From the NCBI RefSeq assembly GCF_006345805.1, contig NC_043002.1:31744001-31808000 (forward strand): a stretch of DNA of 64,000 nucleotides, in the 5' to 3' direction. Positions 15,329-63,360 of this stretch are shown one piece after another. Source of the DNA: Octopus sinensis. Lineage: Eukaryota. A model generated the notes under the pieces. The model was not told the DNA's origin. It saw only the letters and a program-made list of their open reading frames with translations, and did no database searches. The translations under genes and the position numbers were made by a program. Positions within the stretch are counted from its first letter, which is position 1. Every line of letters begins with the position of its first letter.

Positions 15329-16290
15329 TATTAGGTTGTCCTACATGAAATGGATTTTCAATGAGTTTCTATGTATATGCCTGTATTTACTCGTAACTCT
15401 TTTCTTTCTAGACATACTATTATTCAAAATAGCTACCCGCAGCTCTTATGACAATGTTGACAACTGAACAATACTGAGTGATCTTCTTGTGCGAATACAA
15501 GTTGTGTCACTCTGCCACCGAAGCTCTACGAAACGGGCTTTTGGTAACGATTCTATTTATTTTCAAACTGTTCAGAGATAGTTTCAGAGATTTCATCAGG
15601 AAACGAAATCTTTAAAAATGTACTAAGAAGGAAACCAAAATCAGTTATTCGGCATGAGTTACTCAATGCTTTGGTTAAATGAAATCCAAGAGCAACGGTC
15701 TGAAAACTCGGATCAGGGCTCCAGACATATCCTGCAACTGCTTCTCGACACTTGAAGAAAATTAGAACAGTCAAAAAGACGAATAGGCTTGTTTCCCATC
15801 AACTTAACGAGATTCAAAGAAATAGTCGCCTTACAGTGTGTTTTACGTCGATTTCTTGGTTGGAAAGAGAACCATTTTTGTATCGACTCATTAGGTGTGA
15901 TGAGAAGTGGATACTCTTTGATAACAGCAGAAGGATAGGACGGTGGTTAGATGCAAGAGAGTCACCAAAAGATTACCCCAAACCACTATTGTACGCTAAA
16001 ATGTTGATGATGGTCAACAAAGGGGGCTATTCATTATTTTTTTTTAGTAACAAGGAAAACTGTAACAGCAACATCCTATTTTCAGGTAATTGATTGTATG
16101 CATGAAAAATTAAAAATGAAGCAAACCAGATTAGTGAATAGAGATGACCGAATTTTGCTTACGGGTAATGCACAGCCTCACACTTGTTAAGCTGTGATCC
16201 ACAAGTTGCAAAGCATGAATTATGAAATTTTGGCACATCATCCTCAATCTCCTAATTTCTCTCCTACTGATTATCACATATTTAAACTTC
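15329..16290 (+). mobile_element. Decayed mariner, 3'-truncated
   Basis: TA+ttaggttg TIR start; LIRCDEKWILFDN, ILLTGNAQPH, HPQSPNFSPTDYHIF motifs with frameshifts. Confidence 0.85.
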
Positions 16291-23330: not shown

Positions 23331-23377
<47 letters not shown>

Positions 23378-23507
23378 ATATGACATGGCCTGGGCCAATG
23401 CCGGCCAGTTTTTTTTTTTTTTTTTTTTTTTTTGGCACACCCCCCCACACACACCCACCCACCTGCCTCCCACACGCACACACCCCCCACCTACCCCCAC
23501 ACAACAC

Positions 23508-24308
23508 TACTCCCAGTTCCTCCGCCTCCGACGTTTGTGCAGCCGCGACCAGGATTTCGAGACCCAATCTCAATACCTGGCCCGCATGTTCAGACTCCGA
23601 GGTTACCCACCCATACTCCTCTCTGATGCCCTCCCGCGCCCGTCGCATCGACCGCACTACCGCCCTGTCTCCTTCCCCCGCCCACCCCACAACCGCACCC
23701 CCTTCCCCCTCCTTTTCCACCCCTCTACCCTACCCCTTCGTCGCAAGATACTACGTGCCTTCCGTCGCCTCCAGCTTGATCCCACCACCCGCCCCATTTT
23801 CCCTAACCTACCCCTGTCCTCTTTCAAACGAGCCCGCAATCTGCGTGACCTCCTGGTCCACAGCACCCTCTCTCCTTCCCCCTCAGCCCCACACGGATCA
23901 TTCCCTTGCTCTAGATCCCGCTGCAACACTTGCCCCTTCATCACCAACACCACCGCTGTCACCGGCTCCAACCTGCACACTGTACGCATTAGGCACTCTT
24001 TTACGTGCACCTCGTCTGGCCTTATTTACTGCATTAAATGCAACCTATGCGGGATGCTGTATGTAGGACAGACGGGACGCCGGTTGTCCGACCGTTTCAC
24101 TGAGCACTTAAGGGACGTTCGCCTACACTCTCTTTCTCCCGTCGCACGCCACTTCCGCTCGGCCGGCCATTCCCTAGATGACATCTCAGTGTTTGGTCTC
24201 GCGCCCCACCAAGGTCGCCCACTTTCCAGGCTCCACTTGGAGCAACGCTACATCTTCACCCTACAAACTACCACCCCACACGGACTTAACACAGCCCCCT
24301 CCTCTTGA
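23508..24308 (+). pseudogene. PLE ORF C-terminus: RT thumb, Cys-rich linker and GIY-YIG endonuclease
   Basis: YSQFLRLRRLCS..RGYP; FKRARNLRDLLV; CSRSRCNTC; LIYCIKCNLCGMLYVGQTGRRLSDRFTEH; VARHF; LEQRYIFTLQT..PHGLN. Expected SRARRIDRTTAL is in another frame (~23630-23680), implying compensating frameshifts. Confidence 0.9.
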
Positions 24309-27255
24309 GATTTGTTTTTTTTTTTTTTTTTTTTTGGCACACCACCCACACACACCCACCCACCTGCCGCCCACACGCACACACCCACCCACCTACCTCC
24401 CACACACACCCAACCACCTACCTCCCACACGCCTGTTCACACACACACATACGTAGACCCATCTACGTACATACATTCACACATTTAATCACACACACTT
24501 ACAGACATACTAGCACACACTAACATACAAACCAACATGCACATACACACACACATACATACATACGCACACACATACATACTTACACACACACACACAC
24601 ACACAGACATACATACACACATACACACACACACAAACTCACACACACACACACCGCACGTACATACTTCACACACACACATGCAAACATACATGTAGGC
24701 ACATACATACATACATGCCCACACATGCACACCCTTACACTGAATGCACACACACATACACCTTTTTGCATCCAGGCAGCCCCCCCTCTTTTCTGCTTTC
24801 CGGTTTTGGCTGATGGATCCTCGGTTCCCGCGTAGCGGGGCGTTCGAGGGCCTTTGCGCTCGCGCGCCTTGGCGCGCGCTGGGGGCTTGGTCGGCCCCTT
24901 GGGCTTGCGTTGTACTGCTTGTGCGTTGTGTGCGTGAGCGCGCTTTGTGCGTGTGGGCTTGCTTCGGATGTGCGCGTACGTATGTATGCATACATACCCA
25001 CACACTCGCATGCATCCCTACCCACATACATACACGCACACCTACTCACACACACACATACACACACATACCTGCACACACACACACATACATACATACA
25101 CATACATACCTACTTCAGACATACACACACACAGACATACACCCATACACTCACACTCACACGCATACACACACACACATACACACGCACACGTACACAT
25201 ACACACACACACACACACCTACATACATACATTACACTTGTATACACACACACTTACATTCATACACACACACACCTACACAGCCATACCCTCACTCAGA
25301 CACACACATCTACCTACACACACACACAAACACACACGGACACACACCCATACATACATACATCTACACACACACGCCTACACACATACATACACACATA
25401 CATAAACACACACACATACACATATACACACATACGCACACACACATATACTTATACACATGCACACACACACACATACATACATACACCCATATACATA
25501 CATACACACATACCCACATACTCCTATACGCACATACATACACAAAGACATACACACTTACACACTCACACAAACATACACACACACATACTTACACACA
25601 CACTCACCTGCTCGCGCACACACATGCATGACAAACACCCATACACTCACACTCACATACGCACACACCAACATAAACACGCACACGCACACCTACACTC
25701 CCACACACATACACACGCACCTACATACACACACGCACGCATACACACGCATACACACATACATTACACACGTACACACACACCCACATACACATGCATA
25801 CACACACACACAAACATGCACGGACACACCCAGACATACACACATACACCTATATACACACGCCCACACACCTACATACACACACACATACACACGCCCA
25901 CACACCTACATACACACACATACATACACACACATACACGGACACACCCACACATACTTACATACATACAACTATACACACACGCCTACACACCTACATA
26001 CACACACATGCATACACACACACATGTACGCACATACACACACATATACGCACATACATATATACCCACACACATGCACACACACACACACATACGCACA
26101 TGCATGCATGCATGCACACGCGCACACCTACACGCATACACACACACACACGCACGTACACATACATACATACACACACGCATACATACACCCATACACA
26201 TACATGCATCCGACACACACATACATACACACTCACACATACATACACACACACCACTCACTCACACACCTGTATGTACGCGCACACACATGCACATACA
26301 CACACTTCCCCACACCACACGTACATACATACACACTCACACACATACACACACACACACACACACGGACATACATCTATGCACACACATACATACACAC
26401 ATACTCACATACATTCATCGACACACACTGCCACCCAGACATACACACAGACACACTCACACATCCACACACATACATACTTACGCGCATACTCGCAGGC
26501 ACGCGCACATACGCACTTGCGCCGGCTCGCGCTGCATACGCGCCGCATACACCTCGCCCTTGGACCTGACGAGACCTCCCGCCCGTTCCTGGGACCGTCG
26601 CGTGTCGTTGGGTTTTCCCACGCCTGTCTCCGCGGTACCACTCTTCCATCTTCCCCTCAGCTGGAGTCCTTTTTCCTTAACACCCCCCCCTTTTTCGTTA
26701 CACACACGCGCACACATATACACACCTTGCTATATATATATACATCACTCTTACACACATTCAATCTACTCGCCATTAATACCACCACGACACTGGACAC
26801 ACACACACACTACTACTCAACACACGCTGGCACGCTACATACGCCCCCACCCCTTCCCCTCCCTCCCTTCCTCCTCCTTCTTTTTCTTACTACTGACCTC
26901 CCTTCCTCCTTCCTCTTTTTCTTACTACTGACCTGTCTGCTAGCTGACCACTAGTCTCCCTACCTCACACGCCTACACACAGACGCACACACTAAACACA
27001 CACATATTTTTTTTTTTTTTCATCTCGCCTCACACACACACATACACACACGCACACGCACACACTCACACATACACACACATCTGTTGGGTTACCAACC
27101 TTGTCTCCACTCTTTTGCCTTTAAAAACCCACTTTGCTCTTGTTATCGTCAACATCCGCCTTTCACCATGTGCAACTCGTAAACACCAGTCGTCTTTTTT
27201 CTCTTTCCCTGTTGCCCGCTCTGGGATCTTTCTTTCCTCTCTCTTCCTTCTTTAT

Positions 27256-27290
27256 GTTTCCGACGAAGAGCTCCGCTCGAAACGTCATAC
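27256..27290 (+). ncRNA. Minimal type I hammerhead-like motif (U4C variant)
   Basis: gttt-CCGACGA-A-gagc(tcc)gctc-GAAA-CGTC-atac. Confidence 0.6.
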
Positions 27291-27826
27291 CTCCCTGCTT
27301 CCATCTCCTGAGCGCCTATTAATAATAATACTGTAATTGTTCCTGTTGTTGTTGTTTTTTGTTTCCCTTTTGGATTAAAAATATATATATATATATATAT
27401 ATATAGTTATACATATACATAGATACTTAGGGATCTTCTGAACTAACTATATAGATACACGTTTACAACGTAAAACAGTAATGTATAATAATTTAAGAAT
27501 ACACCAAATCAATTTAACTATTTCATTTCAAAAACAAAAATACCTGTTACATTTAATTTTAATTATTTTCATAAGGTGCTAAATTCTTCCTTGTATGATT
27601 TCGACCCGGTCATTGATATTGCTCTGAAAATTTGTTCATGAATACCATCTCTTGCATTCTCTCAAGTTGAATTTATTGTAGGCATGTCGAACTAAATCAG
27701 GTTGATTGCATTTTTTCTTAATGATTGTAAAACATCAGTCAGTTTCAGGTTACATTGTTTCCATGTTTACATGGTATATACAATTATACAGAGAACATTT
27801 AAGGATATTAAAAACTGTGCCATATA

Positions 27827-28316: not shown

Positions 28317-29515
28317 CGAGGTGGTATAAAAAGTTCCTGGACTAATTCTGTAGCGCGCCAACAGATAGCAGCACATAATTGCGTGCGCAGTGAGAGCTTG
28401 AAGTGACTTTCATGAGGCACTGTGCCTAGCGGCATCACTGTGTTTACTTTAGAAGTTGATAAATTTGTGCTGTTGTCTGCAATTTTGTCATCGACAGGAA
28501 AAAAGTGCAAACGAAATTTTGCGTTAAACTTGGAAAGACCTTGAGCATGATTCGGCAAGCTTAAGGCGTCGAGTCAAAATGACACGGGTGCTTCGAAAAA
28601 GGAGGAAAGTCCCTGGAAGACAATAAGCGATGTAAAAGACCTGCCACGAGCGTCACCCACGGAAATATGTAGAAAATTCATCAGCTTATGCATGCCGATC
28701 GTCGGAGGACAATCAATGACATTGCAGATGCTGCTAGTATGCCGTGTGGGTCTGTGCAGGCAATTTTAACGTCTGAATTGTACTTGCAGCGTGTCTCTAC
28801 CAAGTTTTTCTTCCGACTGCTGACCACTCAGCAGAAAGAACATAACTTTGAAGTCTGTCAAGACCTCCGTCATCCTTCATGTCGAGGATTATCATCGGTA
28901 GAAGGGTCTACGGGTACTACACTGAGACGAATCACTCGGCACAATGGAAGAGCCTTTCATCTTTACGACCGAAAAAGGCACGACAGAGACACAGATCAAT
29001 CAAGAGCATGCTCATCATTTTATTGTGCATCGGGTATTCGTCTCCCGGGGTTAAACCATCCATGAACAGTTCTACTGCGACGTTTCACAGTGTCCGAGGG
29101 AGGACATTCAGCGAAAGGGACCAGATCTGTGGAACACGAAGAACTAGATTCTTCTCGACGGCAATGCACTTTGTCATCGAGCTTTACTCACTCGTGAGTT
29201 TCTCGCCAAAAAACATGGTATCACTTCCGCACCCGCCCTACTTGACAGATTTAGCACCTGCGGATTTCCACCTTTTCCGCAAGACGGAAATGCAGCTCAA
29301 AGGTCACCGTTTTAATACCGTTGTCAAGATCCAGAGTGAATCACAGAAGATCCTCGACTGGCTTACGAAAAACGACTTTCAGGCCACATTTCAAATGTGG
29401 CACGAACGTTAGGACTGCTGCGCAAGGTGACTGTTTTGAAGGACAAGGTGTAAAAATTAGGTAAATAAAGTTTTATTAAACCTAACTAGTTTAGGAAGGT
29501 TTTAATGCCAATTCG
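28317..29515 (+). mobile_element. Full-length decayed mariner
   Basis: TIRs cgaggtggtataaaaagttcctggactaatt / aactagtttaggaaggttttaatgccaattcg; DRRRTINDIA and HPPYLTDLAPADFHLF motifs; frameshifted. Confidence 0.9.
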
Positions 29516-32822: not shown

Positions 32823-33520
32823 ATATATAATATATATATACATATATATGTAATATATATATATATAGACATATGTATATACTTATATATGTGTATGTAT
32901 ATGTACATAATTATAAAGTTATATATCATCAATGTAATTCTATCTAGAGATATATGTGTACACACACACATATATGTATAAGATATGTACGCATATATGT
33001 CTGAGCATAAACACCCACAACATAAAATATATGAATACGTATATATGTATGTATATATGCATATATATGTATATATATATATATATATATATTAATGCAT
33101 GTTCATGTAAACGAATATTTATATATTCGCATATGTTTATGCGTATGCACGTGTATTAATGAATATATATATATGTATTATACATACATACATTTATGTA
33201 TATGTATGTGTATACATATATATATATATATCCGTAATAATGAAGGGTGAAATTAATTAATTTGGAATAATTATCAATTACACGAAGTAGTCTTCGGCAT
33301 GTAAAAGCCTCATTCGAGGAAAATTTAAGTAATACTAAGCAATAAAGGGTTTAGCAACGAATTGCCTTACCACATACCGAATTTAGAAATAGCAGTCAAA
33401 GAGTTATAGCTATTTCTTCTACTAAAAAGGGAAATCTCAGTAAAAACAGCAATTGGAAGGCAGACACAAACAGGTAAGAGAGAATGAATTGACGGCAATC
33501 TATCATACAATTTTAAGTTA

Positions 33521-33620
33521 TCTACGGACGTACGTTTCGAAATCAAGTTTTTAGGAAAGCATAAGAATTAAATATTAAATAATTCTATCTTACCAAAATT
33601 TCTTTTCTCTTCAGCGTAGA
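33521..33620 (-). ncRNA. Type I hammerhead ribozyme (mirror copy)
   Basis: Reverse complement of the 33679-33778 motif with an intact core. Confidence 0.8.
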
Positions 33621-33678
33621 ATACTATAATCATAAATGATTATATATTGAATTTTGAGATACTAGAAGATTATAGTAT

Positions 33679-33778
33679 TCTACGCTGAAGAGAAAAGAAG
33701 TTTTGGTAAGATAGAATTATTTAATATTTCATTCTTATGCTTTCCTAAAAACTTGATTTCGAAACGTACGTCCGTAGA
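33679..33778 (+). ncRNA. Type I hammerhead ribozyme with extended stem II
   Basis: tctacg-CTGAAGA-gaaa..~60 nt..tttc-GAAA-C-GTAC-GTC-cgtaga; 6-bp stem I; predicted cleavage after 33772. Confidence 0.85.
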
Positions 33779-34022
33779 TAACTTAAAATTGTATGATAGA
33801 TTGCCGTCAATTCATTCTCTCTTACCTGTTTGTGTCTGCCTTCCAATTGCTGTTTTTACTGAGATCTCCCTTTTTAGTAGAAGAAATAGCTATAACTCTT
33901 GACTGCTATTTCTAAATTCGGTATGTGGTAAGGCAATTCGTTGCTAAACCCTTTATTGCTTAGTATATATATATATATTATATATATATATATATTATAT
34001 ATATATATATTATATATATATA

Positions 34023-34087
<65 letters not shown>

Positions 34088-34254
34088 ACATTCATAGAAA
34101 TGCTGTTTTGTTTTCTTGTGTTTAAGGATCAGTTTTATTGGGGAACAATTTGATACACTAATACCAGGTTTAATATATTTTCTTACTTTATTTTGGTATT
34201 GATTTCTTCTTTATGTTTGTTGTTTGAGAAGCCACTGCTCATTAATGCATAATG

Positions 34255-36071: not shown

Positions 36072-36690
36072 GCACAGAAGTGGGTATTAGTAATGGACAC
36101 TACATATTTTACTTTTATTGAAGTAAATTTTCTTTACACCTGCTTCTTGTACTTATTACAGTTTCTGAATTTACTCCAATAATGGAAAATAGGAAAGAAT
36201 CATTATTTATATCCTGTGTGGTATTTCTCTCTGTCTAAAACCAGTTTGAGTGGAGCGCCACCATGGATTTGCGACATAGAATGGAGATGAAATATAGCCT
36301 CAGGTTCTGCCATTAGGATACATGGATGTTTTACTCATCTGAACAATGTCTTAGCCTGCTACGCCAAAAGAAATCTCTGAAGTGTTACGTCCGGATTGAT
36401 AACCCATACCAATAACTATATTCATACATACATACATACATACATACATACATACATACATACATACATACATACATACATACATACATACATTCATACA
36501 TACATACATACATACAGACATACATACATACTACATACATACATACAATACATACATACATACATACATACAACATACATACTACATACATACATACATA
36601 CATACATACAATACATACATACATACATACATACATACATACATACATACATACATACATACATACATACATACATACATACATACATAC

Positions 36691-36972
36691 AGAGCGTCGG
36701 CTGCGGGGTCATTCCGAAAAGCTCTACCTGCGACGGTTTCATCTCAATCGAAGGAGAGGAGCTTTCTCCGTCCGGGTTGCGGATCCGTGGAACAAGCTGC
36801 CAGACGAGATGGTGAAGATGCCGACGACCGCTTTGTTCAAAGCCTCCCTGGACCTCAAGTGGCCTGAACTCTTTGCATGAACACCACTCTGTACTTAACT
36901 CCATGTCCCCCTACATGGCCTTGCTATTTGCTTTTGAGCCAAATTAACCAACTAACTAACTAACTAACTAAC
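36691..36972 (+). mobile_element. 5'-truncated CR1-type LINE 3' end with (CTAA)n tail
   Basis: 36692-36880 reads ERRLRGHSEKLYLRRFHLNRRRGAFSVRVADPWNKLPDEMVKMPTTALFKASLDLKWPELFA*; embedded in (CATA)n. Confidence 0.85.
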
Positions 36973-38157: not shown

Positions 38158-39055
38158 TGGAGCCATACGTTGCAAGGAATTCTTTGGGGTTTGGATAATT
38201 CATCTTTGGAAACATGTGTGTTTCGTTCAAATCCTTAAATAACCCATATTCAGGGACCTTTTGAGCAGGATGGGCTACTCGACCTGTAGAAAATTCTAAC
38301 TGGAGGCCATCCGCAAGGTCATACGCTGCTTATCTTGATATGAGATCAGCATGTTGCGCACAGATGGTTGTGACTCATGTACTTGGAGTACCCTTATCAG
38401 ATAGGTAGTCATGATGGCTATACAGGGCTTTGTATATTTTACCCCAGTTTCATTTTGATGGCATGCACAGCTCTCTCACTCAATATAATAATAATAATAA
38501 TAATAATAATAAGTACCAGGCAGTGGCTCTCATGGCTTCTGATCTTAACTGATTGGAAGTGTTATCATGTACATTGTTTTGTCTTGGTATAAAAGATGGG
38601 CTACAGCAAATATTCTGCTCAATACCACAGATTTGCTTGTCAGTTGTTTGACCTTAACCAGTTGAGCATCTCCCTTAGTGGCTGACGATATGTGCATCTC
38701 TGATCACGAGCAGAAGTAGTGGGGGAGCATCATAGCCATGTGTTGAGAAGGATTCTTTGGGGTTTGAATAATTCACCTCTGGAAACATGGGTGTTGCGTT
38801 CAACGTCCTTAAACAACCCTTATTCAGGGACCTTTTGAGCGGGATGGGTTACTCGATCTGAAGAAAATTCTAACTGGGCTCCACCTGCAAAGTCATATGC
38901 TGTTTATCTTGATATGAGATCATCATGTCGCACACATATGGTTGGGATGCATGTGCCTGGTGTACCCTTATCAGACGGGTAGTCATGATGGGTATACTGG
39001 GCTTCGTATATTTTACCCCAGTGTCACTTTGATGGCATGCTCTGCTCGCTCACTC

Positions 39056-39109
<54 letters not shown>

Positions 39110-39948
39110 CACGCCTTTTATTGCAACAACACAACTGAACTCAGAAATTCAAAAATTCAACGACGTGAATTTCAGTATATATGTGTGAGGGTATATATAT
39201 ATGTGTGTGTGTGTGTGTGCGTCCGTGCGCGCTCGTGTGTGTAAATATGTGTGTATATATATATTATTATTATTATTGTGTTTTTCTACCAGTAATTACA
39301 AATGGAACAGATTGAATTGCTTCTTTTCAAGACAGCGCTTTCAGTGGTCAGTTCAGATAGTTAAGCAATGACATTATTATTATTATTTTTCAGTAATGCC
39401 TTGATGGTGTAGCACGCATTGGCTCTCATGGTGCCTGATCTTAACTGATTGGAAGCGTTATCTTGTACATTGTTTTGTTTTGGAATAAAAGATGGGCTAC
39501 GGCAAATATTTTGCTCCATACCACAGATTTTGCATTCAATTGTTTGACCATAACCAGTTGAGCATGTCCCTTAATGGCTGATGATATGTGCATCTCTGAT
39601 CACGAGCAGAAGTAGTGCAGTAGCATCATAGCCACGTGTTGAAAGTAATTCTTTGTTGTGTGGATAATTCACCTTTGGTAGCATGGGTGTTTTGTTCAAC
39701 AACCTTAATCCTTATTCAAGGACCTTTTGAGCGGAATGGGCTACTCGACCTGAAAAAAATTCTAACTGGACGCCATCTGTAGGGTCATGCGCTGTTTATC
39801 TTCATATAAGATCAGCATGTCGCGCACATATATTTGTGACTCATATGCTTAATGTAAACTTTTCAGACGGGAAGTCATGATGGGTTTACTGTGCTTCGTA
39901 TATATGTACCACAGTCTCACTTTGATGGCATGCGCTGTCTTCACACTC
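38158..39948. mobile_element. Three copies of a ~545-bp non-coding repeat anchored on (AAT)n
   Basis: Copies ~38158-38481, ~38513-39055 and ~39393-39948 all end ...ctcactc/cacactc directly before (AAT)n. Confidence 0.85.
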
Positions 39949-40342
39949 AATAATAACAATAATGATAATAGTTGAGACAGACATAATAAAGACAAAGATG
40001 GACATAACTCAGACAGCAGACGTAGAACTTACATGAAGGAGATTAAAGTATCGATCATTTCTTCAATGAATGCCTAAACGAGCACAAAAAGAGTATTTGC
40101 GCTCTCATGGCTGTGTAGTCAAAAGCGTGCATTGAGATGTTAACCTTGTGTGTGGCTTAGAATGAAAAGGAAATGTTATGAACACAGATCAAAGGCTCTA
40201 ATAGAAAATGTGATTTATAGGATGCTAAAGGTCTTTCCCATAAAGACTAACTACTATAGAAGCAAGAATACAAGATGCGATTGTTGACGATAAATTGAAC
40301 AAAGAGTAAATTTGCAATACCGCATGAAAAATGAGAGGATAC

Positions 40343-50407: not shown

Positions 50408-52461
50408 CCAGAATGCAACACTAGTTGGTCTGGACTGTTACAGTGAGCAGATGTGAGTTTCGGCTCCGCGAATAGAAAAAAAAGAGCAAAAAGAAATATT
50501 GTCAATTATGGCTCGCTATAGTGAGCAAAATACTGGGTTCTCATCACCGTAACGGTGAGTTGAGAATTTTTTTGAAAATTCTTCTTGTGAATTCTAGTGG
50601 ACGTATCTCGCCAGAAAAATAAGAAGAAGCCATTTGGATTACCTTTTTGGAGTATTATACAAAGAATTCCTGTCTGTGCTATTTGTGAGGTGTTTCTTTT
50701 ACTTTTCCCTTCTTCTATTTTTTCTTTCTTTCTAAATTTTGGTTCATTCTTTTCAGTACTTTAATTTCAGTTTCCTGCCCTCCTCTTTTATTTTGTTTTA
50801 TTTTTATTCGGTTTAATTTTTTGGCAGACTGTCTTTTGAACTACTTTGGAACTGTTTTTTGACATGGCAGAGAAGGAACTTAAAAAGAAAAACTCTGTCT
50901 TAGAGTGGGTAATTAACCCGCCTAAGCAATGGTTAAAAGATATGGGGGAGAAGACGGTGGTACTTAGAACGTATTCTAAATTTCTTAATTCCATCACCGT
51001 CTTCCCAAAACAAGTCATAAAAAATGAACTTAAAGAACATTTGTCCTCTGTAAAATATATATCCCGTGGTGTCAAACATGCAACCGTATGGTTGCTGTTT
51101 GACAATGGGGAAAAGGCTCGCCAGTTTGCGAGTCAGCCTTTAGAAGGCAAGGAAATTCTATTTCTCCCGTCATATTGTGGAAGAAAATTAATACGAGCCT
51201 TGGTATGTGGGCTCCCCCCGAGCACCGAAGCGGATTGGATTGAAGATACCATACAACGGGGACTGGGGGATGGCGGACCCAGGCTCTTAAATGTAAGAGT
51301 ATTGCTGGCGGTCGATTGGGAAGGGTCAAAAGCGATTTTGACCCTGTGGACCCCATCGGCCGCAACAGAACTGGTTTTTCCAGACTTCTTGAAAATGGCT
51401 GGCTGCAGGTATACGGTGATACTTGAGGTACGTCCCCCAAATGTCACTCGTGCCTGCAGCCAGGCCACATTAAAAGGAACTGCCCCCAGGACCATGTTAA
51501 GGTCCTGGAACAGTCACTAGATGCCACCTTCCCTACCCGGTCGAAGGGAGAGGTGGATGTGGTCGAGGAGGCTTCAGCCGCCTCAACTCAAAAAGGATTA
51601 AAAAGGAAGAAGGCGAGCAACAATAGTTGCCCGCCGAAGGAAGCTAAGGCTTCGGAAGGCGGGGGAGAGTCTTCGGACAAAGCGGAAGAGCTCCACTCTC
51701 CCGAAGCCAGGAAGAAAAGAAAAAGAAGAAGGAAGAAGAACGGGTCATCTCAGCGGGGAGATGATGTGTCGACTGCACGTCCCGAAGTTGTGCCACCCAC
51801 GGTGGAAGAAACCACCCCCACCCTTAAAGATGATCAATTAATTATCTTTTTCTACAAGGGCAGGGAGGTGGAAAAAATAGTAGAAGAACACAAAGAAACA
51901 GTAGATATGCCCTTCACACGGGATCCCGAATGGCCTCCGCAGATAGCTGTGGAGGTCATAAAGTTTCCCTTGTGGGAAAGGCTTAAAGGATTTGGGGAGG
52001 AGTGTCGCATATAGCCGGGTGGCCCTTACACGATTTACATGTCCTGCATGAGTGAGGCATGGGAAATGGCGGGATACAGGAACTCAAGCGGCATTGAAGA
52101 TAATGATGAATATATCGATGGATATATCGAAGAGTAGGAGGTGAAAGACCCTCGTTACAGGGTTTGAGACCTCATCTTATTGGATTATTTTGTAGTGGTT
52201 TATAACCTCAATTTTGTGCTTTAAGAAAGAAAAAAAAAGAAAACATGTTAAGTAAGAGGTTTTAGTGCCTTCTCCGTGTAAGAGGTTCGAAACCTCATAT
52301 TGATTTAAAAAAAAAAAGAAAATATGTTTTCGAGAAAAATCCAATCGGCGGGTGTTGGGTTTCGTCTCTCATTTATTCATTATATTTCATTTTCATTCAT
52401 TAATGTATTTGTCCAGCCCGCAAAGCTCTTTGTACTATCTATATGACAAATTTATGAAATA
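50408..52461 (+). mobile_element. ORF1-only non-autonomous L1/Tx1-like retroelement
   Basis: 15-bp TSD AAGTAGCTTG(T/C)TTAC at 50393-50407 and 52462-52476; 5' UTR, single gag-like ORF, 3' UTR ending in AATAAA. Confidence 0.8.
50864..52137 (+). pseudogene. L1/Tx1-type ORF1 (gag-like, CCHC zinc knuckle), ~420 aa when reconstructed
   Basis: ORFs 50846-51520 and 51553-52014 join through a 1-nt shift at ~51434-51441, giving RPP-KCHSCLQPGHIKRNCP (CX2CX4HX4C, 51442-51483); basic KKRKRRRKK; the frame stays open 40 codons past TAG 52012-52014. Confidence 0.8.
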
Positions 52462-52863: not shown

Positions 52864-53109
52864 AGCGATATCTGATAATAAAGCTAAGAGTAGGCAAAGT
52901 TAACTTAAATATGGTAAGTTATACGTATCTAAAGTTTTAAGATACGCTAGGCTTCCTCAATATAATCTATAAATTTAATTATTAGTAATTACAGTGTATA
53001 TTGTAGGGTCATGGACGACCAGATATTGATTGATTTTCGTTGCCTGTGTGAATGACCTTCAAGTATTTTCTCTGCCTGTGTGAATGACCTTCAAGTATTT
53101 TGGCTTCTC

Positions 53110-53310
53110 TGGAAGACCCTTTTTAAAGTAGAAGAAATAGCTAAGATTTTTGGCTGCTATTTCTAAACTTCGGTGTGTGGTGAAGCAAATATTTGCTGAA
53201 CCCTTTTATTAGCATTACTTAAGTTTGCCGTGAAACGGTCCCTTTTTCATACCGAATTCTACTTGGTGAAATTATTGATTACTTCTTAGTTAATTAATTT
53301 TACCCTTTGT

Positions 53311-53315
<5 letters not shown>
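53110..53315 (+). mobile_element. PLE terminus homologous to 33231-33435 (reverse complement), ending in (TA)n
   Basis: agtagaagaaatagcta..gctgctatttctaaa..ggtgtgtggt..ttaattaatttt.accct. Confidence 0.7.
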
Positions 53316-62287: not shown

Positions 62288-62392
62288 AGCAAAGGCGGAG
62301 GTATTGTGTTCAGTCGTGTTCGTTTGTTTGTTTATCCGAGGACAAGATATCTCAAGAACCGCTGGACGGATTAGGATGAAACTTTCAAGGAT
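62288..62392 (+). mobile_element. Helentron-associated (DINE-1/HINE-like) 5' fragment
   Basis: aaggcggaggtattgtgttc..(gttt)n..caagatatctcaagaaccgctggacggatt..gatgaaact. Confidence 0.6.
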
Positions 62393-63360
62393 GCATCCCA
62401 CAGGATTTTGGAATTCTCATTTTTGGTATCTCCTTCTGGAGTTTTCGCATTCCACGTCTTTGCTCCTTGTAGGATGTGATTTCCATAAAGCTCCTTATGA
62501 CCCATTCTTGTCACAATGTCATGGCGTCTTTTGTATTCGCGTTGTGCCAATTTCGCGCATTCACTAACGATGTGCCATACTATTTCATCCCTCTCATCAC
62601 ACATTCTGCATTTGTCACTATCGGTAGTGTTGTCTATTCTGCCCTTCATACAGTTGGTCCTTACCGTTTGTTCCTGAGTTGTGCATATGAGTGCTTCTGT
62701 CTCTGTCTTCAGGTCCCTATTCCTCATCCATAGCCACCGGTCCTTCGTATGTGTCCTGGCGTTCACATCTCTTGCAAATTGACCGTACATTTTCTTTTCC
62801 ATCCATGCTTTTTTTTTTCATTTCTTATTAAAATTTTTCTTTCGTTGCACAATTTTTAATTTTGATGACACCGGCTTTCATCATATGTTTCAACAGTGGC
62901 TCTACGATATGTTTTATATACCACACTAAGCTGTTTTCCATTGCTTCGATACAGTCCTGGCAACTGACCAAACCTCTCCAACTCTATCTTCTAGACAGGT
63001 ATAGCCTATCGGTGTTTTTCTTAGGGTGGAAGAATCCGTGTACTGTCAACATTTTTTTCTGGTCTTGGTACCCATTTTCTTCATTTCTCTCTTTTGCCGT
63101 TTTATATTTCCAGCTCCATACCGAAGTGATGCCCATGTATTAACTGCTTGAATTTTATTCCATCCAATCAATTTTCAGCGCAACACCAACCTCAGTCTTC
63201 AGACATACTCCATCCTCAGTTGCTCTTTCATTTCTTTTTCCATTATCTCGTTGAAATCTTGTACACCAAGGTATTTGTATCTTTCCGTTTCAGTTTGTAA
63301 TTTAAAATGCCTCACTTGCGCTAAATATGTGAGTTCGCCTGCAAATATCCTTGATAATTT
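62393..63360 (-). mobile_element. R4/Dong-clade LINE fragment (thumb and CCHC finger)
   Basis: YKYLGV; MYGQF; ETEALICTTQEQ; CRMCDERDEIVWHIVSEC..LAQREYKRRHD; KILWD. Confidence 0.9.

Follow-up and report, generated by a model that had tools for sequence, protein, structure and literature searches.

How does a hammerhead ribozyme come to lie on both strands of a long and nearly perfect palindrome, and can such a locus do anything? The question is raised by a locus in a stretch of 64,000 nucleotides of Octopus sinensis DNA (contig NC_043002.1, positions 31,744,001 to 31,808,000; the window hereafter), which is animal DNA, rich in microsatellites, from a 2.7-Gb assembly. Both inverted Penelope-type ends and retrozymes have already been published. 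Animal non-LTR retrozymes have been described by Cervera and de la Pena 2020 (PMC7229834) and by Li et al. 2026 (10.64898/2026.07.22.740005). They occur alongside Penelope-like elements, which have been suggested to copy them, perhaps from circles; this mobility is still a proposal in both sources. Additionally, PMC8557442 names the route by which Penelope-like elements produce tandem and inverted insertions as an unsolved question.

We find that the palindrome is a partial copy of a young, ORF-less tandem unit of 593 nt that belongs to the non-LTR retrozymes. This non-coding retrozyme was probably copied into a TA microsatellite by a borrowed Penelope-like enzyme, with both cut DNA strands primed at two separate sites on the RNA. 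A young, abundant family free of open reading frames constitutes a large natural sample with a sharp end rule, namely one end at each of two sites termed T1 and T2, and its small conserved RNA module, which can be probed in vitro, bears on the question of how Penelope-type insertions arise.

Hammerheads on both strands of an imperfect palindrome

The features of the locus are as follows, with the parts of the hammerhead read from the sequence and the tail defined by arm alignment and unit folding.

33163..33230, no strand: left target tract, (TA)n, from sequence
33231..33963, no strand: complete family A retrozyme insertion, which runs through unit 298->453 (minus strand) and then 490->195 (plus strand)
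33231..33668, minus: arm with the T2 end, 0.74 unit, 3' end outward at 33231
33231..33331, minus: one-sided tail of about 101 nt, the T1-to-T2 stretch
33521..33620, minus: mirror copy of the hammerhead, with its cut predicted to fall between 33527 and 33526
33632..33667, minus: palindrome spacer of 36 nt, ordinary unit sequence of the longer arm, next to the inversion joint at 33668
33668..33963, plus: arm with the T1 end, 0.51 unit, 3' end outward at 33963
33679..33778, plus: type I hammerhead, predicted cut after 33772
33679-33684 with 33773-33778, plus: stem I
33685-33691, plus: core
33692-33760, plus: stem II, 69 nt, with a G-C closing pair
33761-33764, plus: GAAA
33764-33771, plus: stem III, self-complementary
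33770-33772, plus: GTC
33872..33963, plus: first half of a conserved structured module (unit 100-300), with a hairpin at 33882-33913 and a junction from 33917 to T1
33964..34088, no strand: right target tract, (TA)n, from sequence

All parts of the hammerhead that the earlier note had placed on the two strands are found, at 33679-33778 (+) and 33521-33620 (-). Its description of the ribozyme as intact holds for the core and for stems I and III and fails for stem II, which carries one private change in each arm (33730 on the plus strand, 33599 on the minus strand); the change at 33599, private to the minus arm, weakens stem II of the mirror hammerhead, and folding predicts stem II of that arm in another register. 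The palindrome itself is real and is as little diverged as had been said, with 3 substitutions and a 1-nt indel over 300 columns when 33332-33631 is aligned with 33668-33966. Its extent is about 632 bp (33332-33963) instead of roughly 635 bp at 33231..33966, and 33231-33331 is a one-sided tail, in which lie the strand that closes the conserved junction and the hairpin immediately ahead of T2. The ends of the insertion (33231..33963) lie inside (TA)n and are uncertain by a few bases, and with (TA)n on both flanks a target-site duplication is unreadable there.

The Rfam search proposed as a check on the hammerhead detected no hammerhead in the window at either gathering or relaxed thresholds; relaxed matches in the window are hairpin microRNA models that fall on the palindrome centre. 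Moreover, the fold stability of the ribozyme region does not exceed that of shuffles (z -0.13 and -0.79). As folding did not distinguish it from shuffles and Rfam was silent, evidence that the ribozyme is real had to come from its relatives.

The palindrome is a partial copy of a young non-coding retrozyme

Searches of the genome assembly found copies of this sequence, here termed family A, that are 99% identical and scattered over many contigs in (TA)n tracts, which bears out the earlier claim of a young insertion. Four such searches gave 1316, 1421, 1236 and 886 first-look candidates, which are not copy numbers, and 40 candidates were scored in each. Many copies are arranged head-to-tail with a spacing of 593 nt (594 nt for the monomer in locus L004) in tandem arrays of up to 5.2 units. 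The unit has a GC content of 34%, its longest stop-free frame in the natural monomer spans 66 codons, and its opposite polarity, searched for a second ribozyme, yielded none, so that the unit has a single hammerhead core. Folded as a circle, the monomer reaches -152.8 kcal/mol as compared with -118.2 +- 6.3 for 40 shuffles, and the opposite strand reaches -125.7.

Family A thus fits the non-LTR retrozyme as defined in PMC7229834 and 10.64898/2026.07.22.740005, as its units are head-to-tail, carry hammerheads, are non-coding, lack LTRs, have a GC content below 45% and form a highly self-paired monomer. A reverse transcriptase and GIY-YIG frame, which would mark an autonomous Penelope-like element, was not found in the unit. 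A MITE or foldback DNA transposon, whose copies should all bear fixed terminal inverted repeats, was also considered and rejected, since an inverted arm is missing from 29 copies and, in the 43 that have one, the two ends are unequal and the centre differs from copy to copy. A search of a phage collection gave no match.

Sister families and conservation of the ribozyme

Two sister families were found, family B through a second copy in the window and family C through a neighbour of locus L009.

53010..53315, plus: member of sister family B (77% across unit 96-292), which starts at the predicted hammerhead cut site and has its T2 end in (TA)n

This copy also has a local 32-nt duplication at 53033-53105. 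Sampled units measure 578 nt in family B and 555 nt in family C, and the three families are mutually 57-66% identical. The hammerhead occupies the same place in the unit in all three, with a stem II of 67-80 nt in A, 52-57 nt in B and 22-29 nt in C. In families A and B, folding gives an interrupted hairpin for stem II, whose length varies freely; the long stem II emphasized earlier is thus confirmed at 69 nt for this locus and, given a range of 22-80 nt across families, is not essential.

In 14 aligned sequences from the three families the core letters (CUGANGA, GAAA, A15.1-U16.1 and a NUH cut site) are invariant, and the expected pairing is present in 92% of cells as compared with 22-45% in slid controls. 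Double changes occur in 6 of 14 hammerhead pairs, including 3/6 in helix I and 2/4 at the base of helix II; because the 14 rows are kin, the shuffle control overstates significance and does not give a probability. The case that the hammerhead is more than a chance motif rests on the family, that is, on an invariant core and covarying stems in three families. With its core, three helices of which helix I is open and a palindromic helix III suited to the dimeric form, it has the make-up of a type I hammerhead. Family A has a G-C pair at 10.1-11.1; the position is unpaired in 7/7 aligned B and C rows, though G-C in copy L119. Rfam likewise detected no hammerhead in family B and C loci (stem II of 52 and 25 nt), so stem II length is not the sole cause of the miss; hammerheads with a very long stem II do slip past Rfam.

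The centre of stem III varies (UA in 8 rows, CG in 4 and UG in 2) and yet self-pairs in every row, with duplex energies of -8.8 to -13.3 kcal/mol, which argues that two ribozymes would pair in a dimeric form. This retained self-pairing, together with the covariation of stem I, points to cleavage as a dimer. A contact between loop 1 and loop 2 in the usual geometry is doubtful given the long stem II.

The best conserved part of the unit is the stretch at 100-300, where 26-36 of 50 columns are identical among families A, B and C as compared with 7-20 elsewhere. This module folds into a hairpin, a junction that holds T1 and a second hairpin just before T2, and 6/40 of its pairs are doubly changed among nine sequences. 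The module is likely a platform for binding and priming. A telomerase-template look-alike near T1 is absent from B and C, and was dropped. There are also mini-palindromes of family C (L128-L147), about 340 nt long, that consist of the conserved module alone; in the 16 fullest of them the turn lies at unit about 70-86, within a natural short palindrome, in a sample that is biased because the query was itself such a copy.

Traces of predicted cleavage

A reverse transcriptase running off a cleaved RNA is expected to leave 5' ends at unit 1-4, the first letters after the predicted cut. By hand count, about 28 family B arms extend to the predicted cut site, and 5 of them have a 5' end at unit 1-2 (P 6e-5 against an assumed background of 1.5%, or 7e-4 without the query copy at 53010), and three arms of family C start at unit 1-4. 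For family A, 0/30 matches to unit 1-115 start at the cut site; one copy (L008) starts at unit 3, and in run X2 there is one joint whose two arms both end at the cut site. The fossil sign of cutting in family A is thus weak. A loose end at 33773 in run X5 was rejected as a sign of cleavage as it joins a common dispersed repeat that shares the same four letters. For comparison, one of nine predicted frog retrozymes cut in vitro (10.64898/2026.07.22.740005).

Insertion ends follow a two-site rule

The 3' ends of family A fall at two sites, T1 at unit about 191-204 and T2 at about 287-305, and at both there are a few letters common to the unit and (TA)n. After overlapping loci and duplicate contigs were merged by joint signature (with L021 and L022 counted once), the genome assembly provided 43 distinct inverted insertions, in all of which both 3' ends point outward and each of which has a different centre and arm length. 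Both ends are visible in 41 of these, and 38 of the 41 pair a T1 end with a T2 end (37 by script and L258 by inspection); the other three have one irregular end, and T1/T1 or T2/T2 pairs number 0/41, classes that the five queries behind the census did not bar. Outer ends adjoin TA repeats in 79/84 cases. The complete single-orientation copies (n=29, a count that omits 8 loci incompletely covered by the retrieved sequence) end at T1 in 25 cases, at T2 in 2 and elsewhere in 2. Inverted copies of families B and C again pair T1 with T2, in searches whose queries favoured T2. The insertions thus have the anatomy of Penelope-like ones, including fixed 3' ends, an optional tail, 5' truncation, an inverted arm and a (TA)n target.

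Priming of both strands, one at T1 and the other at T2, would explain both the palindrome and its one-sided tail. The main competitor is that the mirror arm is made by a single cDNA that folds back and primes itself, with the tail left by endonuclease resolution instead of a second priming site. Self-priming has been proposed for the inverted ends of Penelope elements (PMC3846280) and the tail has been ascribed to endonuclease resolution (PMC8557442). We regard this scheme as unlikely for the family as a whole, and the geometry of the arms is what weighs on it. In a set of 33 simple inverted copies, from which multi-piece or cut inversions are omitted, the short arm fits inside the long arm in 25, the copy in the window among them, so that fold-back could explain that copy; this rate does not exceed that of shuffled arm pairs (21.8 +- 2.1, P 0.10). 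In the remaining 8/33, neither arm fits inside the other, and these cannot be copy-backs. Inner ends lie no more than 20 nt apart in 7/33 copies (P 0.006), the nearly symmetric joints that fold-back predicts; the median distance between inner ends is 118 nt. Furthermore, T1 or T2 ends also occur in single-orientation copies. The arms that cannot be copy-backs favour priming from both DNA strands.

Of the 66 arms in this set, 27 exceed one unit. Subfamily alleles and some private ones are usually common to both arms and to tandem units, which indicates that both arms come from one source. On a circle as opposed to a multimer as template, the array comparisons are mixed, with mis-split arrays left out. 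In L065, an array of 5 units, two variants come back in some of the units but not in others, and L021:1939-2898 and L022 are a seamless tandem in which the inner unit belongs to a young subfamily and the outer unit to an older one, reflecting either a mixed template or an in-register insertion into an old copy. A single monomer circle does not explain L065 and L021 because their units are unlike.

A proposed route of insertion

We propose that insertion by twin priming would proceed as follows. Tandem source loci would be transcribed, and two hammerheads would pair via stem III and then cut. The monomers may be circularised, and the template would be either such a circle or an uncut multimer. 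A Penelope-like reverse transcriptase-endonuclease supplied by another element would bind the module at unit 100-300 and nick both strands of (TA)n, upon which one cDNA would start at T1 and the other at T2. These cDNAs would be copied upstream for 0.03 to >5 units and then be joined at their ends. Failure of one arm would give a plain tandem copy, mostly T1-ended, and fold-back may yield a minority of joints.

A more specific version, which we offer as a tentative possibility with the odds against it, is that a dimeric Penelope-type enzyme sits on a 200-nt RNA platform with one priming site for each nicked strand and rolls round a hammerhead-generated circle from both ends. If true, twin-primed rolling-circle retrotransposition would have left its fossil record in this genome's retrozyme families, and a single mechanism would account for tandem, inverted and one-tailed Penelope-like insertions.

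Penelope-like elements as partners or parents

The genome assembly contains four young Penelope-like families with frames of 775-1009 aa, and in this small sample they have no sequence in common with units A, B or C. Thus, no shared sequence links the retrozymes to the candidates considered as partners, namely the element at window 23334 (1008-aa copy L126), the C-rich family of L156 and its kin, the 781-aa family L202-L205 and the 775-aa family L207. Matches in L169, L170, L187, L194 and L198 look like separate neighbouring insertions and not like a partner link.

Several of these elements merit description in their own right. Two of the Penelope-like families, with frames of 781 aa (L202-L205) and 775 aa (L207-L208), are AT-rich, lie beside (TA)n and are candidate partner enzymes; in the 775-aa family the frame is followed by a hammerhead-like motif. 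The window itself holds a 5'-truncated Penelope-like element at 23381-27380 (+), flanked by (TA)n and with a long 3' region rich in CA, whose zinc-finger and GIY-YIG frame lies at 23334-24308. Full-length relatives of this element have 1008-aa frames (L126 and L127), and the search for them gave 16393 candidates. Near its 3' end is a minimal hammerhead-like motif at 27258-27292 (+) that has a U4-to-C core change and a palindromic helix III.

Could the copies be truncated pseudo-LTR stumps of an autonomous Penelope-like element and not an independent non-coding family? The earlier note had pointed to the pseudo-LTRs of Penelope-like elements, and the anatomy of the insertions is indeed that of Penelope-like ones; rare long copies may also escape searches in which 40 candidates each were scored. 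We nonetheless consider this improbable. In the 72 mapped insertions (43 inverted and 29 single) the unit continues into itself, into an inverted arm or into the flank, it runs head-to-tail for as many as 5.2 units with no ORF longer than 66 codons, and at 87 loci around Penelope-like or GIY-YIG matches it is never the terminal repeat of the element.

What the locus in the window can do

The 3' ends of the two arms point outward, so that transcription of either strand passes through the complement before it reaches the ribozyme. A read-through transcript of either strand is predicted to form a 300-bp duplex in which the pairing probability of stem I is about 1e-90, in agreement with the suggestion that such a transcript sequesters its ribozyme. 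The suggestion that a transcript of this locus could self-cleave fares poorly by the same token. Each strand of the locus holds a single ribozyme and less than one unit, and 155 nt of unit sequence have no counterpart there. As the unit is incomplete and each strand has a single ribozyme that is buried in duplex, the locus is predicted to be a dead end that yields no monomer. It is an ordinary member of family A and probably inert.

The duplex, predicted on either strand at about -515 kcal/mol, might suggest that the palindrome is a selected regulatory hairpin, serving as dsRNA for editing or silencing or as an off-switch for the ribozyme. This is very improbable, as the centre and arm length differ in every inverted copy, the arms have scattered private changes, and no host gene was identified at the locus. 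A by-product of insertion is the better reading of the palindrome than a regulatory design.

Of the listed sequencing runs (10 studies), 20/24 contain 0.69-0.89 of the sequence words. There is none among those listed that is an RNA run holding retrozyme sequence; parts of the unit are covered in two runs whose RNA nature is a guess, which says nothing about transcription. The proposal that the duplex is a substrate for editing or small RNAs gains no support here, since most letter differences in these two runs are alleles of DNA copies. Specifically, five of seven listed differences also occur in DNA-type runs, one is a genomic variant, and the remaining one is a single low-depth contig.

That the inversion is a long-read or assembly artefact is very unlikely. 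The window joint at 33668 does not occur in the joint lists of four public runs, but neither flank is mirrored, the tail is present on one side only, the arms show 4 differences and the spacer simply carries on the unit sequence. In addition, the genome assembly has 43 inverted insertions with different centres, the T1 and T2 rule runs throughout the genome sample, and other inversion joints appear in the contigs of two presumed DNA runs.

Relation to known systems

As in the animal non-LTR retrozymes of PMC7229834 and 10.64898/2026.07.22.740005, the units here are tandem, low in GC and non-coding, and each has a type I hammerhead. They differ in size, with 593 nt here as compared with 170-400 nt reported for invertebrates (PMC7229834) and 51-972 bp in the preprint, and in having a stem II of 69 nt. 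The preprint suggests that arrays grew locally by unequal crossover, whereas the arrays here are short, dispersed and fixed at their ends, and look written by insertion. Dimeric type I hammerheads (PMC4209133, PMC3088659, PMC7229834) have a similarly short palindromic helix III and full intermolecular pairing; their helix II is 4-8 bp in length, whereas in families A and B the helix II region spans 52-80 nt. Pairs of hammerheads on opposite strands, 100-700 bp apart, are mentioned in PMC4209133.

The likeness to Penelope-like elements with an endonuclease is closer still in anatomy. The available descriptions (PMC3846280, PMC8557442) report partial tandems, an inverted 5'-truncated copy, an optional tail and a bias toward (TA)n, and family A has outward inverted arms, a tail at one end, variable 5' truncation and microsatellite targets. 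It differs from them in having no coding frame, in a tail of about 100 nt as compared with 30-40 nt, and in a one-tail rule that is near-strict (38/41, with zero insertions that have two tails or none). In vitro work on Poseidon of the green anole (Frangieh et al. 2024, PMC11167929) established that two internal start sites define the tail and that both strands of AT-rich targets are cut and extended, with a dimer predicted; in that system the authors saw no effect of strand on the start site and found cleavage dispensable for insertion in vitro. Both systems have two start sites downstream of the hammerhead cut and AT-rich targets, and they differ in that family A has its sites in a non-coding module, about 195 and 298 nt beyond the cut.

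In the literature searched, which lacks most subscription papers and repeat databases, we found no report of a cephalopod retrozyme, of a strict T1 and T2 rule or of twin priming, and the main text of a recent octopus repeat annotation (PMC13282606) mentions neither ribozymes nor retrozymes.

Other elements

Other hammerhead families with a palindromic helix III, unrelated to A-C, were seen at L098:2490-2560 (+), L152:3778-3845 (+), L207:6010-6065 (+) and L028 about 2750-2830. Within the window, four frames (15704-16093, 28673-29412, 36416-36880 and 62371-62817) are presumably fragments of mariner elements and LINEs, and they had no match in Pfam at E 0.001. Two overlapping frames at 50840-52014 (+), one of them with a zinc knuckle (PF00098), resemble what we take to be the first frame of a LINE. 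Finally, 38161-39974 contains three dispersed copies of a segment of 250-570 nt that are 69-87% alike, each followed by (AAT)n.
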